The notes beneath the pieces were generated by a model, which saw nothing but the letters and a program-made list of their open reading frames with translations, was not told where the DNA came from and ran no database searches. A stretch of DNA of 64,000 bases from Pseudomonadota bacterium. GTDB lineage: Bacteria > Pseudomonadota > Gammaproteobacteria > Burkholderiales > Gallionellaceae. This document shows, piece after piece, positions 8,108 to 64,000 of the stretch; positions within the stretch are counted from its first letter, which is position 1; every line of letters begins with the position of its first letter. Location: NCBI GenBank assembly GCA_021800795.1, contig JAJYYO010000010.1, forward strand, positions 80-64,079. The letters are read 5' to 3'. The translations under genes were made by a program, and so were the position numbers.

Positions 8108-8299
8108 GTAGGATGCGGTGACAACCGCATCGCTCACGTCATTCCCCAAGCTGCGTTCATATCGCCACCGCGAACGATGCGGTTGTCACCGCATCCTACG
8201 CCGCATCAACGTACCAACTCCTGTATCTTGCGGTTCGCACCCTGCAGTTTTTTGAACAGCGCCAGCACCGCGAATGATGCGGTTGTCACCGCATCCTAC
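8108..8299. repeat. GTAG-type REP cluster (3 copies)
   Basis: GTAGGATGCGGTGACAACCGCATC at 8108-8131 (+), 8176-8199 (-) and 8276-8299 (-). Confidence 0.9.
8206..8267 (-). pseudogene. displaced duplicate of the last 19 codons of the cNMP-binding protein gene
   Basis: LALFKKLQGANRKIQELVR* versus ...ELIR* at 9084-9145. Confidence 0.85.
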
Positions 8300-8346
8300 C
8301 GGGTTTATATGGCGGTTTTCTTGGTAAAGGGGACGCTACCCTTTTA

Positions 8347-8628
8347 CTATAGCCCCAGCTCACTATGGGAACCGAGCCGCACAAGTCGCATATTGTCGGC
8401 GTCTGGTTTGTGGTAAATCAATACCAGGTCAGGCTTGATGTGGCAGTCGCGGTGATCCTTCCAGTCGCCAGTGAGCGGATGGTCACGAAAACGCGGTTCA
8501 AGAGGTTGATCGTTCGCAAGACAATCTACAACGGGAAACAAGTCATCATCAAGCGAAGAGCGGTGCCGGCCTTTGGCTTCGCGCTTGTAGTCTCGCTTAA
8601 ATTGGCCGGTCCATTCAATCGTCCGCAC
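8347..8628 (-). CDS. yafQ: YafQ-family (RelE superfamily) toxin
   Basis: FKRDYKR, DHPLTGDWKDHRDCHIKPDLVLIY, LVRLGSHSEL. Confidence 0.9.
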   Translation of the reverse strand: MRTIEWTGQFKRDYKREAKGRHRSSLDDDLFPVVDCLANDQPLEPRFRDHPLTGDWKDHRDCHIKPDLVLIYHKPDADNMRLVRLGSHSELGL

Positions 8629-8878
8629 GGAGTGCTTTTTTCAATTCCGCAATACTGTTGGCGCGAGGCAGATTTCCGGCGCGAGCCTCCATCATGGCCG
8701 CAATAGTGACGGCATTGGGAACCAGAGGGTCAAATGGCAGTGCGTGTTCATGTGCAATTCTTGTTAGCAGCATTCGCACTGCATCGGACACAGTGAGACC
8801 CATAGCGGCCAGCACGCTCGCTGCCTCTTCTTTGATGGCTCCATCAATGCGGGTTTGTACCAGTTGGTTTGCAGCCAT
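8615..8878 (-). CDS. dinJ: RelB/DinJ-family antitoxin
   Basis: VQTRIDGAIKEEAASVLAAMGLTVSDAVRMLLTRIAHEHALPFD; overlaps the toxin start. Confidence 0.88.
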   Translation of the reverse strand: MAANQLVQTRIDGAIKEEAASVLAAMGLTVSDAVRMLLTRIAHEHALPFDPLVPNAVTIAAMMEARAGNLPRANSIAELKKALRADD

Positions 8879-8902
8879 GATCACTTCTCCTTGTTAATTT
8901 GA

Positions 8903-8915
8903 ATTACATTGTAAT
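8903..8915. promoter_or_regulatory. palindromic operator upstream of dinJ-yafQ
   Basis: ATTACA-T-TGTAAT. Confidence 0.55.
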
Positions 8916-8985
8916 GCATTGCGAGTGGCAGCACAAACATTGGGACGCAAATTGGGGCGCAATATTGGTAAAGGGGTAAAGCGCG

Positions 8986-9076
8986 GTAGGATGCGGTGAC
9001 AACCGCATCGCTCGCGTCATTCCCCGGTTGAGTTTATATCGCCACCGCGAACGATGCGGTTGTCACCGCATCCTAC
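8986..9076. repeat. inverted REP pair (REPIN-like)
   Basis: Same 24-bp REP at 8986-9009 (+) and 9053-9076 (-); spacer is homologous to the 8108-8199 pair. Confidence 0.9.
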
Positions 9077-9083
9077 TACAGCA

Positions 9084-9599
9084 TCAACGTATCAATTCCT
9101 GAATCTTGCGGTTCGCGCCCTGCAGTTTTTTGAACAGCGCCAGCAGCAGTGCTTTATCCATATAGGATTTGACTGTGGCATTGCTTTGCAATCGCGCGAT
9201 GCCGGTTTTGTCGATTTCTGCAACGATCAGCTCTCCATCGGCGACGACGGTCGCCGAGCGTGAAATGCTTCCGCTGGCAAAGAAAGTCCCCTCGCCTATG
9301 CATTCTCCGCTGACTATTTTACCGACTATTTTTTTGTCGCAGTAAACGGTGACCGTGCCGAACAGCACGACGTAGAAGGTATTTGAATCATCTCCTTCCG
9401 AGGTGAGGCAGTCATTAGCGGTAAATTTGCGGATTTCGGCCTGTTCGGAGATGAGCTTCAGCCATTCGCCGGGAACGGGATCGAAAAAAGAACACTTGCG
9501 TAATTCTCGCAAACGTTCGCTTGCATCGTCGTCAAGGCGCTTGGTGAAATTGGCAAGACTGGCCTCGATGGATAGCATGGCGTCGTCGAAGTTGTTCAT
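9084..9599 (-). CDS. cyclic-nucleotide-binding domain protein
   Basis: FYVVLFGTVTV, GECIGE, RSATVVA; start taken at MNNFDD. Confidence 0.8.
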   Translation of the reverse strand: MNNFDDAMLSIEASLANFTKRLDDDASERLRELRKCSFFDPVPGEWLKLISEQAEIRKFTANDCLTSEGDDSNTFYVVLFGTVTVYCDKKIVGKIVSGECIGEGTFFASGSISRSATVVADGELIVAEIDKTGIARLQSNATVKSYMDKALLLALFKKLQGANRKIQELIR

Positions 9600-9677
9600 T
9601 TTTGTCCCCTGTGCTGATCTATCCGTAATCTGTGCGTAACTTATCACAAGCCGCAACCGGCGTATATTAATTCGCGC

Positions 9678-19412: not shown

Positions 19413-19442
19413 TTACAGGCCAGCGTCATTTAAGGTGTTTTG
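19413..19442 (-). pseudogene. recoded, internally deleted duplicate of the metK 3' end
   Basis: CAA AAC ACC TTA AAT GAC GCT GGC CTG TAA (QNT-LN-DAGL*) versus [15 protein letters not shown]. Confidence 0.65.
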
Positions 19443-19512
19443 GCTACAGCGCACATCTGCTACGCAGATATGTGCCTACGCCGAAATACTGACAAACCCC
19501 TACGGGGCGGGC

Positions 19513-20676
19513 TTATAGCCCGGCATCCGCGCGGAGCGCGGCTGCTTTGTCAGTATTTTCCCAGGTGAATTCGGGTTCTTCGCGGCCGAAGTGACCGTAG
19601 GCAGCGGTTTTTTCATAGATGGGGCGCAACAGGTCGAGCATTTGCACGATGCCTTTCGGGCGCAGATCAAAATGACGCAACACCAGTTCGGTCAGTTTTT
19701 CATCGGAAATTTTGCCTGTTCCATAAGTGTCGACCATCACGCTGGTGGGTTTTGCAACGCCGATTGCATAGGAAACCTGCACCAGGCACTTGCTGGCAAG
19801 GCCCGCCGCAACGATGTTCTTGGCGACGTAACGACCGGCATAGGCAGCCGAACGATCCACCTTGGAGGGGTCCTTGCCGGAAAATGCGCCGCCGCCATGA
19901 GGCGCTGCGCCGCCATAGGTGTCCACGATGATCTTGCGACCGGTCAGTCCGCAATCGCCTTGCGGGCCGCCGACAACGAAACGACCGGTCGGGTTGACCA
20001 GAAAGTTGATATTGCCCTTGATGAGTTCTTTAGGCAACATCGGCATGATGATGTCTTCGATCGCCGCTTCGCGGATCGCTTCCAGGGTCATCTCCGGCGC
20101 ATGTTGCGTGGAGAGCACCACGGTGTCGATGCAGTGCGGTTTGCCGTCTATGTAGCGGATGGTGACCTGTGACTTGGCGTCAGGGCGCAGCCAGGGCAGA
20201 CGGCCATCGTGGCGCAATTGCGCCTGACGCTGTACAACCTGATGTGCCAGGTAAATGGCCACCGGCATCAACGTCGGCGTTTCATCGCAGGCGTAACCGA
20301 ACATCAGCCCCTGGTCACCCGCACCCTGATTTAAAAAGTCATCCGAGGCACGATCCACGCCCTGAGCGATGTCCGGGCTTTGCTTGTCGTAAGCGACCAG
20401 TACCGCGCAACCCTTGTAGTCGATGCCGTATTCGGTGTTGTCATAGCCGATGCGCTTGATGGTGTTGCGTGCGACCTGGATGTAATCGACATTGGCAGTG
20501 GTGGTGATTTCGCCGGCCAGAACCACCAGCCCGGTGTTGGTCAGCGTCTCGGCAGCTACCCGTGCATACGGATCTTGCGCTAGAATTGCATCCAGAATCG
20601 CATCGGAAATTTGATCCGAAACCTTGTCGGGATGGCCTTCGGACACGGATTCGGAGGTAAACAGAAATTCACTCAT
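19513..20676 (-). CDS. metK: S-adenosylmethionine synthetase
   Basis: [26 protein letters not shown]. Confidence 0.98.
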
Positions 20677-60073: not shown

Positions 60074-60097
60074 GGGCGCGATTAATCGCGCTCCTAT
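60074..60097. repeat. REP-like palindrome overlapping the murG stop
   Basis: gggcgcgattaatcgcgctcctat. Confidence 0.6.
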
Positions 60098-61170
60098 GCT
60101 TCTCCTTTCTCGACTATTTCGGCACATATCCCAGCCACCGTATCTGCTGCATGGCTCTTGGCCGCATTGCGCGCCTGTTGCGCCATCGCCATTAATTTTT
60201 CCCGGACAAGTTCTCTCAATAACTGTGCGAGCCTGTCCGCATTCAGTTCTGACTGCGGCAGCAAAATAGCCGCTCCTCGTTCGCTCAAGAAACGTGCGTT
60301 ATGCGTCTGGTGATCGTCCACCGCAAACGGAAACGGAATCAACAGGCCGGCCACGCCGGCTGCCGCCAGCTCAGCCACGGTCAGCGCACCGGATCGGCAA
60401 ATCACCAGATCAGCTGCTGCGTAACTTGCCGCCATATTTTCGATGAAGGGCTGGATGTCAGCCTGTATGCCCAGCTGGTTGTACAAAGCTACAACCGCGG
60501 TGTGATGAGCACGGCCTGTCTGATGCACTACATTGGGACGCACATCTGCCGGCATTTTCGCAAGTGCTTCCGGTACGGCGTCATTGATGGCCTTCGCCCC
60601 CAGACTGCCGCCCACCACCAGCAGGTTTAGGCGGCCTGTGCGTTTTGCATAGCGCAACTCGGGCGGGTCAATATTCACAATTTGACCGCGCACCGGATTG
60701 CCGCACCACAGCGCGCCGGGCAACACATCCGGAAAACCCGTCAGTACGCGGTTCGCTACATGTGCCAGCACCTTGTTGCTCAGACCCGCAATTGAATTTT
60801 GCTCGTGTATCACCAGCGGAATCCTCAGCGCGGCGGCCATCAAGCCGCCCGGAAATGTGATATAGCCGCCCATCCCCAGCACCAAGTCGGGTCTGACGCG
60901 CATCATCGCAATCAGGCTCTGCCACAACGCTACCGCAAGATTCAGCGGCAGCAGCAGCTTGCGCAATATACCCTTGCCGCGCAGACCCGAAAAACGCACT
61001 GTCTCCATACGGTAGCCGTGTTTCGGCGCCAGATCGGCTTCCATGCTGTTCGGCGCGCCCAGCCAGGTCACCTGCCAGCCTTCACCACGCAACACGTCGG
61101 CCACCGCAAGAGCCGGGAATATGTGCCCGCCCGTGCCTCCGGCCATAATTAATATAGAGCGGCTATTCAT
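60094..61170 (-). CDS. murG: undecaprenyl-PP-MurNAc-pentapeptide GlcNAc transferase
   Basis: [34 protein letters not shown]. Confidence 0.97.
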
Positions 61171-61258
61171 GGCATTTCTCTGAGATGGGCACATTTCTGC
61201 CGAAGGCAAAAATATGGCCCCCGGTTCCACCTGCCATAATTAAAATGTTTCGGCTCAC
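61163..61258 (-). other. 31-codon mini-ORF: recoded duplicate of the murG N-terminus
   Basis: GTG-start [40 protein letters not shown]; stop lies just inside the murG start. Confidence 0.8.
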
Positions 61259-61282
61259 GAAGCACCTCCTGAGTCAGAGGAA

Positions 61283-61403
61283 TAAGGATTGAGGATTGAG
61301 GATTGAGGATACAAGTCGTTGTGTGCCGCGTCGCGGCACACTTTATCAAAGACGCGGCGCAGCCGCGACAATGCTTCTGTCCTCCGCCCTCTGTACTCTG
61401 TCG
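61283..61403. repeat. heptamer arrays enclosing two small palindromes
   Basis: (GGATTGA)x3; gtgtgccgcgtcgcggcacac; cgcggcgcagccgcg; ttctgtcctccgccctctgtactctgtcg. Confidence 0.75.
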
Positions 61404-61409
61404 CCTGAT

Positions 61410-61588
61410 TCATATTGGCAACCCCCGTGCAATCCTGCGATTTTGGCTACGCCTTAAAGAAAGATTGGAGATTATAATTTTCACAATGGCAAGCAACGGG
61501 CAAGTCGACGGTTTTGGCTGCGCCGAAACAGAAGGTTGGAAATTATTGAATTTCATATTGGCAACCCTCTGGCCAACCTTCTGTTTTC
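61410..61588 (-). repeat. ~72-bp tandem units carrying recoded ftsW C-termini
   Basis: Stops at 61553, 61481 and 61410; [30 protein letters not shown]. Confidence 0.85.
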
Positions 61589-62773
61589 ATAATCCACTCT
61601 GAGCAGCACAGCGGCGGCGATGCAATTGACCACCACGCCACTGCCGCCAAAGCTCAGGAAAGGCAAAGTCAAGCCCTTGGTGGGCAGTACGCCCATATTC
61701 ACGCCGATGTTGATCGTCGCCTGCACGCCTATCCATACGCCGATGCCCTGCGCCACCAGTGCGGAAAAGTTGCGCTCCAAAAACGCGGCGTGACGACCGA
61801 TCTGGAATGCGCGTATCACTACCAGCGCAAACAGCAGAATGACGCAAACCACACCAGCCAGCCCCAGCTCTTCTGCGATGACCGCCATCAAAAAGTCGGT
61901 ATGCGCTTCCGGCAGATAGAACAGTTTCTCCACACTGGCGCCCAGCCCCACGCCGAACCACTCGCCACGACCGAAGGCGATCAGCGCATGACTGAGCTGA
62001 TAACCCTTGCCATACGGGTCTGCCCAGGGGTTCATGAAGCCGATCACACGCTGCATACGGTAGGGCGATGAAAATATCAGTGCGGCAAACGCCAAAGGCA
62101 GCGCCACCAGCAATGCGCCGAACACCTTGACGTTGAAACCGCCCAGCCATAAGGTACAAATGGCGATAGACAAGACCACCACAAACGCGCCCATGTCCGG
62201 TTCCTGCAACAACAAACCGCCTATCACCACCATGACCACGAACATCGGCATAAATGCCCTGATGAACAAATGCGCTACCGCACCCTTGCGCACCGTGTAA
62301 TCGGCGGCATACATCACGGCAAACAGTTTCATCAACTCGGAAGGCTGTAAATTGATCACAAACAGCGACAGCCAGCGGCGGCTGCCGTTCACTTCACGAC
62401 CGATATGCGGGATCAGGACCAGCAGCAGGAGGACTGAGCCTGCCAGAAACAGATAAGGCGCATAGGTCTGCCATAATTGCACCGGCAGCTGAAACGCGAA
62501 CACGCCGGCTATCAGGCCGACGGCGATGAACATGCTGTGGCGCGTCAGATAATAGGTAGCCTGGTGAGCCGTGAACTTGCTGCCCTCGGCGGTGGCGATG
62601 GATGAGGAATACACCATCACCAGCCCGATGGAGAGCAGTGCAATGAATACCCAGATCAGCAGGTTGTCGTACTGAGCCTGCGGCGGCGGGGTTCGCGTCC
62701 GGACAGCGAAAGGGTGGGGGTGCAACCCCCGGGTACCCATCGGCGTACTCCTTGCGGGTGCTAACGAGGCCAT
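61553..62773 (-). CDS. ftsW: peptidoglycan polymerase FtsW
   Basis: [44 protein letters not shown]. Confidence 0.97.
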
Positions 62774-64000
62774 GTCGACTCCTTGGTCAGCTTTCGCACT
62801 TCGGCAATGAAAACTTCGGCGCGGTGCGCGTAATTGCGGTACATGTCGAAACTTGCGCAAGCCGGAGATAACAGCACGGCGTCTCCCGGCAATGCCAGCA
62901 TGGCGGCCTGTCCGACGGCCTCATTCATGTCTTTTGCATGCACCACCGGTACTTCGCAGTCCTGCAACGCCGCCGCTATCTTTGGCGCATCGCGGCCTAT
63001 CAGCACAACTGCGCGTGCGTGTTGAATCACGGCAGACTTTAAGGGGGAAAAATCCTGTTCCTTGCCCACGCCGCCGGCAATCAGCACCGATTTACAACCC
63101 ATGCCTTCCAGTGCGGCGACGGTCGCGCCTACATTGGTTCCCTTGGAGTCGTCATAAAAGCTCACCCCATGCAGTTTTTCGACCAGTTCTACGCGATGCG
63201 GCAAGCCCTTGAAGCTCTTCAAGGCTTCCAGCAATACCGGCATCGGTAAATCAATTGCCCGGCACAAGGCCAGCGCGGCCTGGGCATTGGCAAGATTGTG
63301 CAGCCCGGCGAGTTGCAGTTCGGAGGCCCTGATCAGGCGCCGACTACCCTGCACCAGCCAGATTTCTCCGCCATCTCTTTCAATGCCAAAATCAACTTCA
63401 CGCCCGGGCAGGCCCAGGCCAAAGGTGATGTGGTTGTCGCGCAGCATTGCCATGACGCGCGGGTCGTCCCGGTTCAACACCTGCACGCCGCAATCCTTGA
63501 ATATCCTTTGTTTCGCTGCCGCGTACTCATCCATGTCTGCATAGCGATCCAGATGATCTTCGCTGATGTTCAGCACCGTGGCCGCATCCGCCTTCAAGCT
63601 GAATGTCGTTTCCAGCTGAAAGCTGGACAACTCCAGCACCCATATTTCAGGCTGTTGCTTACCCCGTGCCAGCACCGCATCCAGCACCGCAGGCGATATA
63701 TTGCCCGCCGCCACCGCATCACGGCCCGCTGCCCTGCACAGGTGTTCCACCAGGCTGGTGACGGTCGTCTTGCCGTTCGAGCCGGTAATCGCGATAACAC
63801 GAGGATTGAGGATGGTGGATTGAGGATTGAGTTGTTGCGCGAATAGCTCGATGTCGCCGATCACGGGAATGCCGGCTGCCACAGCACGTGACACGAACGG
63901 GTCGCGCAGCGGCACACCCGGACTGATCGCGATCAGATCGATGCCGGCAAATAATGCATCATTGAATGCCCCGCAAAATACTTGTTCAGGGGAAACCAAT
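62761..64000 (-). CDS. murD: UDP-MurNAc-L-Ala--D-glutamate ligase (5' end outside the window)
   Basis: [43 protein letters not shown]. Confidence 0.96.
63801..63831. repeat. heptamer array in frame in murD ([10 protein letters not shown])
   Basis: gaggattgaggatggtggattgaggattgag immediately before the P-loop strand. Confidence 0.8.

Follow-up and report, generated by a model that had tools for sequence, protein, structure and literature searches.

The ftsW-murG junction of the window genome holds three ftsW tail copies

The window, i.e., the whole 64,000-nucleotide stretch of DNA that was analysed, belongs to a Gallionellaceae genome (referred to here as G000) and carries on its minus strand the ORFs of ftsW (61553..62860, taken as the longest ORF, with the true start probably further in) and murG (60094..61170), with an ftsW-murG gap of 409 nt. 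Homologues of FtsW, 72-90% identical, were found in 80 Gallionella records. On the minus strand, the working ftsW end reads ..GAA AAC AGA AGG TTG GCC AGA GGG TTG CCA ATA TGA, and a repeat search recovered its last 10 codons and stop three times: as the working copy itself (tail copy 1, the X1 of the module described below, 61553..61585), as NRRLARCLPL* (tail copy 2, 61481..61513), which is displaced and decaying, and as NRRIARGLPI* (tail copy 3, 61410..61442), all on the minus strand. The copies are spaced 72 and 71 nt apart and are 69-78% identical, the two spacers between them share 72% identity over 67 nt, and a 14-nt inverted repeat of 100% identity links 61526-61539 to 61573-61586. A previous reading made from the letters of this stretch (the sequence-only reading) had described the three tail copies, the homology of the spacers and the perfect 14-bp inverted repeat, all of which our repeat search reproduced. 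Its codon counts were the same on recount: relative to copy 1, copy 2 carries four synonymous and two non-synonymous codon changes, and copy 3 four synonymous and one non-synonymous.

Several known arrangements were considered for this locus and set aside. A CRISPR array does not match copies of such identity separated by two spacers that are homologous to each other, and a DGR TR/VR pair does not match differences that involve all bases, mostly at synonymous positions, and are not adenine-specific. An integron attC was rejected on its GTT..AAC ends, which are in the wrong order, and programmed ribosomal bypass was rejected because copy 1 has its own stop, making a bypass unneeded.

Repeats this short in a MAG may also raise the suspicion of chance resemblance or of an assembly artefact. 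Yet window positions 60950-61950 were matched with 0 differences and 0 gaps by one contig each in two public runs, run X1 (mine drainage, contig depth 226) and run X3 (sediment, from another study, depth 52), and the same architecture recurred in dozens of species. Most genomes compared in this work are MAGs, the evidence from public runs consists of assembled contigs instead of raw reads, and either X1 or X3 may itself be the source sample. Exact contig matches in two studies thus indicate that the three-copy arrangement is real, and we regard chance or artefact as extremely improbable.

Tail modules combine a hairpin with a palindromic core

Each of the two spacers contains an element of the form TTTCGGCG - nested hairpin - AGCCAAAA. 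When modules of this kind were compared, their layout was constant: the gene up to GAA AAY, a tail copy with its stop (X1), a loop, an arm termed X', the core, AAAAY and the next tail copy (X2), where X' repeats the first 10-20 nt of X1 in inverted orientation. In module 1 of the window, the hairpin H1 is formed by a 5' arm within the ftsW codons AAACAGAAGGTTGG (61573..61586) and a 3' arm (X', 61526..61539) in which the first codons of copy 1 recur in inverted form, and is followed by the core TTTCGGCGCAGCCAAAA (61512..61528, minus strand), a minimal form of a dispersed palindromic element, longer homologues of which are present in L068/L071. Module 2 is a remnant (61443..61468, minus strand), 72% identical to module 1, in which both the inverted arm CCAATCTTTCTTT and the core AAGGCGTAGCCAA are degenerate; copy 2 has lost its complementarity to its own inverted arm and carries a Gly->Cys change. 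At 8 of 8 module loci in G000 and its relatives, the duplicated stretch begins at an in-frame GAA-AAY (Glu-Asn/Lys), compared to an expectation of 49%, this being the genome-wide share of GAAAAY in long ORFs that falls in the Glu-Asn/Lys frame. The length of the duplicated stretch varies by locus (30-63 nt), and its end always lies just beyond the stop codon.

Each inverted arm pairs with the tail copy immediately upstream of it, and this pairing covaries across 31 modules (24 versions of X1), the complementarity of the arms being 10.1/12 within the same genome versus 7.7/12 across genomes. An alignment fold of nine modules yielded a 14-bp H1 and a three-stem core, with eight pairs showing compensatory changes. 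Together with a GNRA-type loop and a few G.U pairs on the mRNA strand, and with the position of H1, which encloses the ftsW stop and the next start, these changes in H1 and the core stems would suit a selected cis-acting RNA device (a stabiliser, attenuator or coupling switch) for the dcw operon, in which case the tail copies would be by-products of its construction out of local sequence. Arm covariation, however, could reflect either selection on the hairpin or quasi-palindrome template switching, which can yield it without any function. A scan of the window region and of the modules of three relatives with the Rfam 15 covariance models gave no match at E<=0.1, and the fold of the 201-nt region was no more stable than that of shuffles (z = -0.06). 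Moreover, 23 of 78 junctions, including that of a conspecific strain, lack the element, and the same element follows unrelated genes. We therefore consider an RNA device improbable as the explanation of this locus.

Displaced tails are recoded mostly at synonymous positions

Across 29 pairs of working and displaced tails from 26 species, selected at >=6/10 identical residues, we counted 139 synonymous versus 42 non-synonymous codon differences, as compared to the 29% of random single-base changes in the same tails that are synonymous. In several pairs there were 9-11 differences, all of them synonymous. At orthologous loci, then, the extra copies carry a synonymous bias instead of decaying without one, and the recoding pattern is not due to chance. 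Residues specific to a lineage (KAA, MPA, V, T) are common to the displaced and the working copy, yet most synonymous sites differ between the two.

A pattern of this sort could be produced by in-place tandem duplication, if the extra tail were then held under purifying selection as a small protein mimicking the C-terminal tail of FtsW. The way in which displaced copies follow the lineage-specific residues of the working tail would agree with such a protein, as would the 39-aa ORF of the subfamily-A modules, which has a constant length, ends in NRR[IV]ARGLPV and departs from the FtsW tail by as many as 11 synonymous differences with 0 non-synonymous ones (L085). Outside the tail, however, the peptide is unconserved, subfamilies A and B use different frames of the core, and no Pfam family was found. 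The synonymous pattern is also present where the displaced copy has no covering ORF, on which ground we rejected translation of a small ORF as its general cause, and it extends to the first 17 residues of MurG, a segment implausible as a standalone protein. In addition, tail versions are common to different genomes, where they occur in different roles. Taken together, we give the small-protein explanation little credence.

The junction varies between species and strains

To date, the comparison covers 78 Gallionella ftsW-murG junctions, of which 23 are empty (the two genes overlapping as ATGA) and 55 are filled with inserts of several kinds, 50-450 nt in size. Tail modules were found in about 30 of the junctions, with three core subfamilies seen, and GAA AAY precedes the working copy in all 31 genomes that have a module after the ftsW stop versus 6 of the 23 empty junctions. 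The number of units at ftsW-murG among these relatives is 0, 1 or 2, where two units with three tail copies occur, in addition to the window, in L068 (the nearest relative), L072 and L091. In L091, a subfamily-B unit is followed by a subfamily-A unit, and since the units are of different subfamilies, they represent two separate acquisitions. A cultured relative, Ca. Ferrigenium straubiae KS (L085), has one module between ftsW and murG, which makes the system experimentally testable. These observations, along with four tandem units at metK in G082 (described below), support the serial accretion of units proposed in the sequence-only reading, which had missed the dispersed palindromic family, the coupled small-ORF bridges and the fact that the resident copy differs between genomes.

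Most informative was a strain recovered from three further studies (runs X7, X8 and X11), which is ~99% identical to the window in the flanks and has an empty ftsW-murG junction. Its ftsW ends in ..GTG GAC TAC GAG AAT CGC AGG ATT GCA CGG GGG TTG CCG GCA TGA, and this tail overlaps the murG start, ATG AGC CGT TCC ATT CTC ATT ATG GCC... The working tail of the empty allele equals copy 3 of the window over 26 nt, identifying copy 3 as the resident tail of the species. Differences between the filled and empty alleles are confined to 61592-61150, and the codons from 61592 onward are respelled, reading GAT TAT GAA AAC in the window and GAC TAC GAG AAT in the empty allele (Asp-Tyr-Glu and the Asn that opens copy 1), which looks like a homologous exchange tract rather than the product of a fixed-site cut. 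The claim that each copy once served as the real C-terminus thus holds for copy 3, whereas copy 2 may have been displaced already on arrival. Related strains hold further alleles: in run X6, one allele lacks tail modules and has the heptamer element described below, while in another, a different tail version follows the first module.

Evidence of exchange was also seen in other genomes. In L073, whose flanks are native, the distal copy is 1 nt from the tail of its clade, and the version that serves as its working copy is displaced in L145/L071; in G017, the displaced metK tail is 96% identical to the working metK tail of the window genome. The resident copy is distal in L073 and L143 and proximal in L145 and L074. 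When polarity was scored in 26 genomes by the copy that matches the nearest module-free relative, the outcome was 12:12, and we therefore dropped the notion that the working copy is always the newcomer. Such mixed polarity fits recombination with variable crossover points better than strictly polar integration.

Some junctions contained inserts of another make. In L067 (G051, from another family of the order), ftsW-murG holds two tandem 113-nt units, each of them an ORF whose first five residues equal those of MurG and whose last residues resemble the FtsW tail (MSHPARGPAQ..AEVPA*). In L074, L075, L088, L098, L113 and L091, an insert of ~57 nt (ACCCGCAAGGAGTACGCCGG..GGAGGCTTCGCCTCC..) lies in frame as an N-terminal insertion in MurG.

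Inserts preserve a chain of overlapping reading frames

In the window, the gap between ftsW and murG is bridged on the minus strand by small predicted ORFs. The first, of 48 aa (61410..61556), opens with an ATG that shares bases with the TGA of copy 1, i.e., the ftsW stop (ATGA), reads copy 2 out of frame and copy 3 in frame, and ends at the TGA of copy 3. This TGA shares bases with the ATG of the next ORF, of 52 aa (61255..61413), which runs across a heptamer-flanked palindromic element, and the stop of the 52-aa ORF overlaps the GTG of a 31-aa ORF (61163..61258), the stop of which overlaps the murG ATG (ATGAATAG). The 31-aa ORF opens with a displaced murG head, i.e., the recoded first 17 residues of MurG, and the core of this head module, TTTC-TGCCGAAGGCA-AAAA (61194..61212, plus strand), is part of the same layout as that of the tail modules on the opposite strand: working end, inverted copy, TTTC-hairpin-AAAA and displaced end. 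Head modules related to that of the window are present in G005, G027, G033 and L092. A Pfam scan of the small ORFs gave only a sub-threshold match to the MurG head, and none for the 48-aa ORF. The start of the latter resembles ribosomal protein L34 (FQPSV), a likeness that we dismissed as coincidental because the codons are those of the inverted hairpin arm.

As for the element crossed by the 52-aa ORF, its heptamers (GAGGATT x4.9, 61277-61310) and palindrome (61321-61341) constitute a separate dispersed repeat of the genus. A homologue of the 52-aa ORF lies at the same ftsW-murG junction in G024.

An unbroken chain of ORFs from the ftsW stop to murG, in which each ATG or GTG overlaps the previous stop, was found in 54 of the 55 filled junctions (a count that also accepts an insert fused in frame to murG), as compared to 20% of length-preserving shuffled inserts. 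This strict version replaced our first, looser statistic, which was too permissive, with 45% of shuffles passing. In the 23 empty junctions, the ftsW TGA and murG ATG overlap in the ATGA form of translational coupling, and every relay ORF of the filled junctions repeats this overlap. The relay peptides are not conserved and differ from one subfamily to another, with variable residues that coincide with unpaired loop positions, while the frame is maintained and the length of the subfamily-A unit is constant (116 nt). Statistically, then, a coupling filter operates at ftsW-murG. As to its physiology, we infer that murG depends on ribosomes passed on from ftsW, so that only inserts that relay translation, through ORFs predicted here from sequence, would survive. 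Furthermore, since the last codons of ftsW overlap the ribosome-binding region of murG, a tail copy must directly precede murG. We know of no description of chains of up to four relay ORFs made of mobile-element sequence in the dcw cluster.

A low-copy element family resides at Gallionella gene ends

The palindromic element is dispersed in Gallionella at low copy, with ~10 copies per genome, and lies at the ends of ftsW, metK, an OTC-like gene and others. In all cases, three sequences flank the element: the working terminus, the opening codons of this terminus in inverted orientation, and a displaced terminus that is recoded mostly at synonymous sites. A pattern search found cores of the form TTTCGGC..GCCAAAA at no fewer than eight loci (>=8) of G000, and cores with recoded tails at ftsW, at metK (window 19413-19560) and on contigs C12, C43, C46, C9 and C6. 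Scanning for repeated C-terminal peptides added G000 loci on C14, C50, C52 and C53, the inserts of which do not contain the TTTCGGCG..AGCCAAAA core. One tail pair, VEFGQPLFVIG*, shows 8 synonymous and 0 non-synonymous differences; the 20-codon pair on C50 shows 13 and 0, and no ORF covers its displaced copy.

Of 121 genomes of the genus (Gallionella as defined by GTDB, Ca. Ferrigenium included), 75 contain the subfamily-A core (66 nt), each with 1-7 copies, which often lie in tandem at other genes. At metK, the window genome has one module and G082 (L148) four tandem units, and the OTC-like gene of G033 has three tail copies. A module was also found outside the family, in G043 (from another family of the order), with the tail HMKKGRSV* present twice and 3 synonymous differences between the copies. 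On C14, on C52 and in L091, the displaced copy likewise has a matching inverted arm of its own.

With dispersed copies, conserved inverted termini whose stems covary, and no transposase gene, the element is MITE-like, yet a short target-site duplication of fixed length is not seen, as the duplicated stretch of 30-63 nt changes from locus to locus. We weighed whether the units are true site-specific mobile cassettes, either cargo-less miniature SCCs or ssDNA elements of the IS200/IS605 type, that integrate at GAAAA^Y and bring their own substitute terminus. Such integration would agree with the GAA AAY found upstream of the working copy in every module-bearing genome, with the L073 insert being bounded exactly by AAAA on both sides, with the inverted arm always matching the upstream copy, and with the same ftsW and metK sites being hit by different core subfamilies. 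Were a unit excised as a circle, its core would lie between the inverted arm and the substitute tail within a single long hairpin, which we mention, speculatively, as a hint at a free form. G000 has five matches to a Y1 transposase (PF01797), but these genes have no cores within +/-700 nt, and a RAYT/REP link was rejected on the same ground. The empty conspecific allele has GAG AAT and not GAAAAY at the site, the recoded tract reaches 12 nt further upstream than the supposed cut, which homologous exchange would predict, and L145 and L074 use the native copy as the working one. Ordinary transposition, moreover, cannot spread the units, because a cassette with an ftsW tail is useless at any other target. 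In light of these findings, we hold site-specific integration to be doubtful. The five PF01797 matches lie on contigs C16, C26, C30, C20 and C27, and one of them contains an internal stop.

A proposed model of stacking by recombination between alleles

The explanation we favour, and consider rather probable, is that cassettes exchanged by recombination between allelic lineages were stacked at this junction, where only arrangements that keep the coupling survive. The ancestral state would be an ftsW stop overlapping the murG start (ATGA). Two miniature terminus-duplicating cassettes would then have come to be stacked between ftsW and murG, yielding three tail copies, with each cassette running from a tail copy and its stop through a short loop, the inverted first 10-20 nt and the palindrome TTTCGGCG..AGCCAAAA to the next tail copy. 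The tail copies would stem from termini that were in use by ftsW in different allelic lineages and were juxtaposed by recombination between filled and empty alleles, not from drift of one duplicate in place. In the window genome, copy 3 is the resident copy, copy 1 and the modules would be the newcomers, and the four synonymously recoded codons upstream of and opening copy 1 would, judging from the empty allele, have come in together with the modules. An insert would be kept only if its frame opens at the ATG that overlaps the stop of ftsW and ends at the following start, which in the window would make four relays to murG: the 48-aa, 52-aa and 31-aa ORFs, and then murG.

Two aspects sit less comfortably with stacking by exchange. 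The lineage-specific residues shared by both copies fit diverged donors poorly, such that exchange may need donors from within the clade, or else selection favouring direct repeats that diverge in nucleotide sequence. The conserved architecture, namely the GAA-AAY start, the inverted arm and the end past the stop, is left unaccounted for by exchange and coupling.

More tentatively, Gallionellaceae may harbour a class of miniature gene-end cassettes, each made of a palindrome and a respelled terminus placed at an in-frame GAA-AAY near the end of a housekeeping gene. The terminus codons of such cassettes would form their own hairpin arm, and the cassettes would stack serially, move between strains and be tolerated in operons only as translated relays. 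The feature in the window is itself an example of a set of gene-end cassettes that spans the genus, is filtered at ftsW-murG by translational coupling and is apparently undescribed; a brief, shallow literature search found no description of this cassette architecture.

The arrangement described here indicates that an essential, tightly coupled cell-division junction can take repeated insertions and keep both genes, the means of this tolerance being a duplicated gene end and translation relayed through the insert. The tail copies would serve as a natural record of past and foreign termini, usable for tracing recombination between Gallionella lineages, and the modules themselves form a small element family with direct-plus-inverted duplications of the target. 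For annotation, short ORFs and 'pseudo-ends' at such junctions should be taken as systematic and not as noise. If the cassettes have an insertion chemistry of their own, e.g., through a dumb-bell or circle intermediate of ~100 nt, they would represent a new kind of mobile element.

Comparison with known systems

Small structured non-coding palindromes, such as REP/BIME, Correia, ERIC and Rickettsia RPE, occur dispersed, either in frame or at the ends of genes; they are co-transcribed, and nesting is seen in some cases. The Gallionella units are like REP/MITE-type repeats in size and structure, yet they differ from them in their low copy number, in having no short fixed target duplication and in showing no RAYT association; neither the high copy number of REPs nor a Y1 gene flanked by REPs was found. 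To our knowledge, no described family of the MITE/REP type carries a recoded duplicate of the neighbouring gene terminus along with an inverted copy of it. In cdiA/rhs orphan modules, new C-terminal cassettes recombine into a conserved stretch and displace the former C-terminus downstream, giving arrays that record past termini. These cassettes encode different toxins with their immunity proteins and diversify function, whereas the Gallionella copies spell the same ten residues and carry no cargo.

By analogy, the integration of SCC/SCCmec at the 3' end of orfX (rlmH) is the closest known counterpart of the Gallionella units. At orfX, a differently spelled element sequence takes the place of 15 bp at the 3' end of the gene and leaves the peptide unchanged, a precedent that would also suit site-specific integration in Gallionella. 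The former end persists as a direct repeat, and since any such repeat can take the next element, tandem arrays arise (PMC3780952). Similarly, the element-side copy in Gallionella restores the last codons with the same peptide in another spelling, and tandem accretion is seen in L091, L068 and L072. SCC elements, however, are 20-60 kb long, with ccr serine recombinases, cargo and a defined 15-bp site, while the Gallionella units are gene-free, with a variable duplicated length and an inverted arm drawn from the gene's own codons. At 70-110 nt they leave no room for a recombinase gene, and only AAAAY is common to their junctions in place of an attachment core, with GAAAAY absent from the empty conspecific allele. 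Unlike that of SCC, their spread looks recombinational.

A cargo-bearing relative of this gene-end duplication logic was observed elsewhere in the window, where 8108-8267 and 8986-9145 flank an insert at 8268-8985. Here, the duplication, of 89% identity, comprises the last 19 codons of a gene for a cNMP-binding-domain protein (9084..9656, minus strand) together with a GTAG-type REP pair, and surrounds an 878-bp DinJ/YafQ-like toxin-antitoxin operon.
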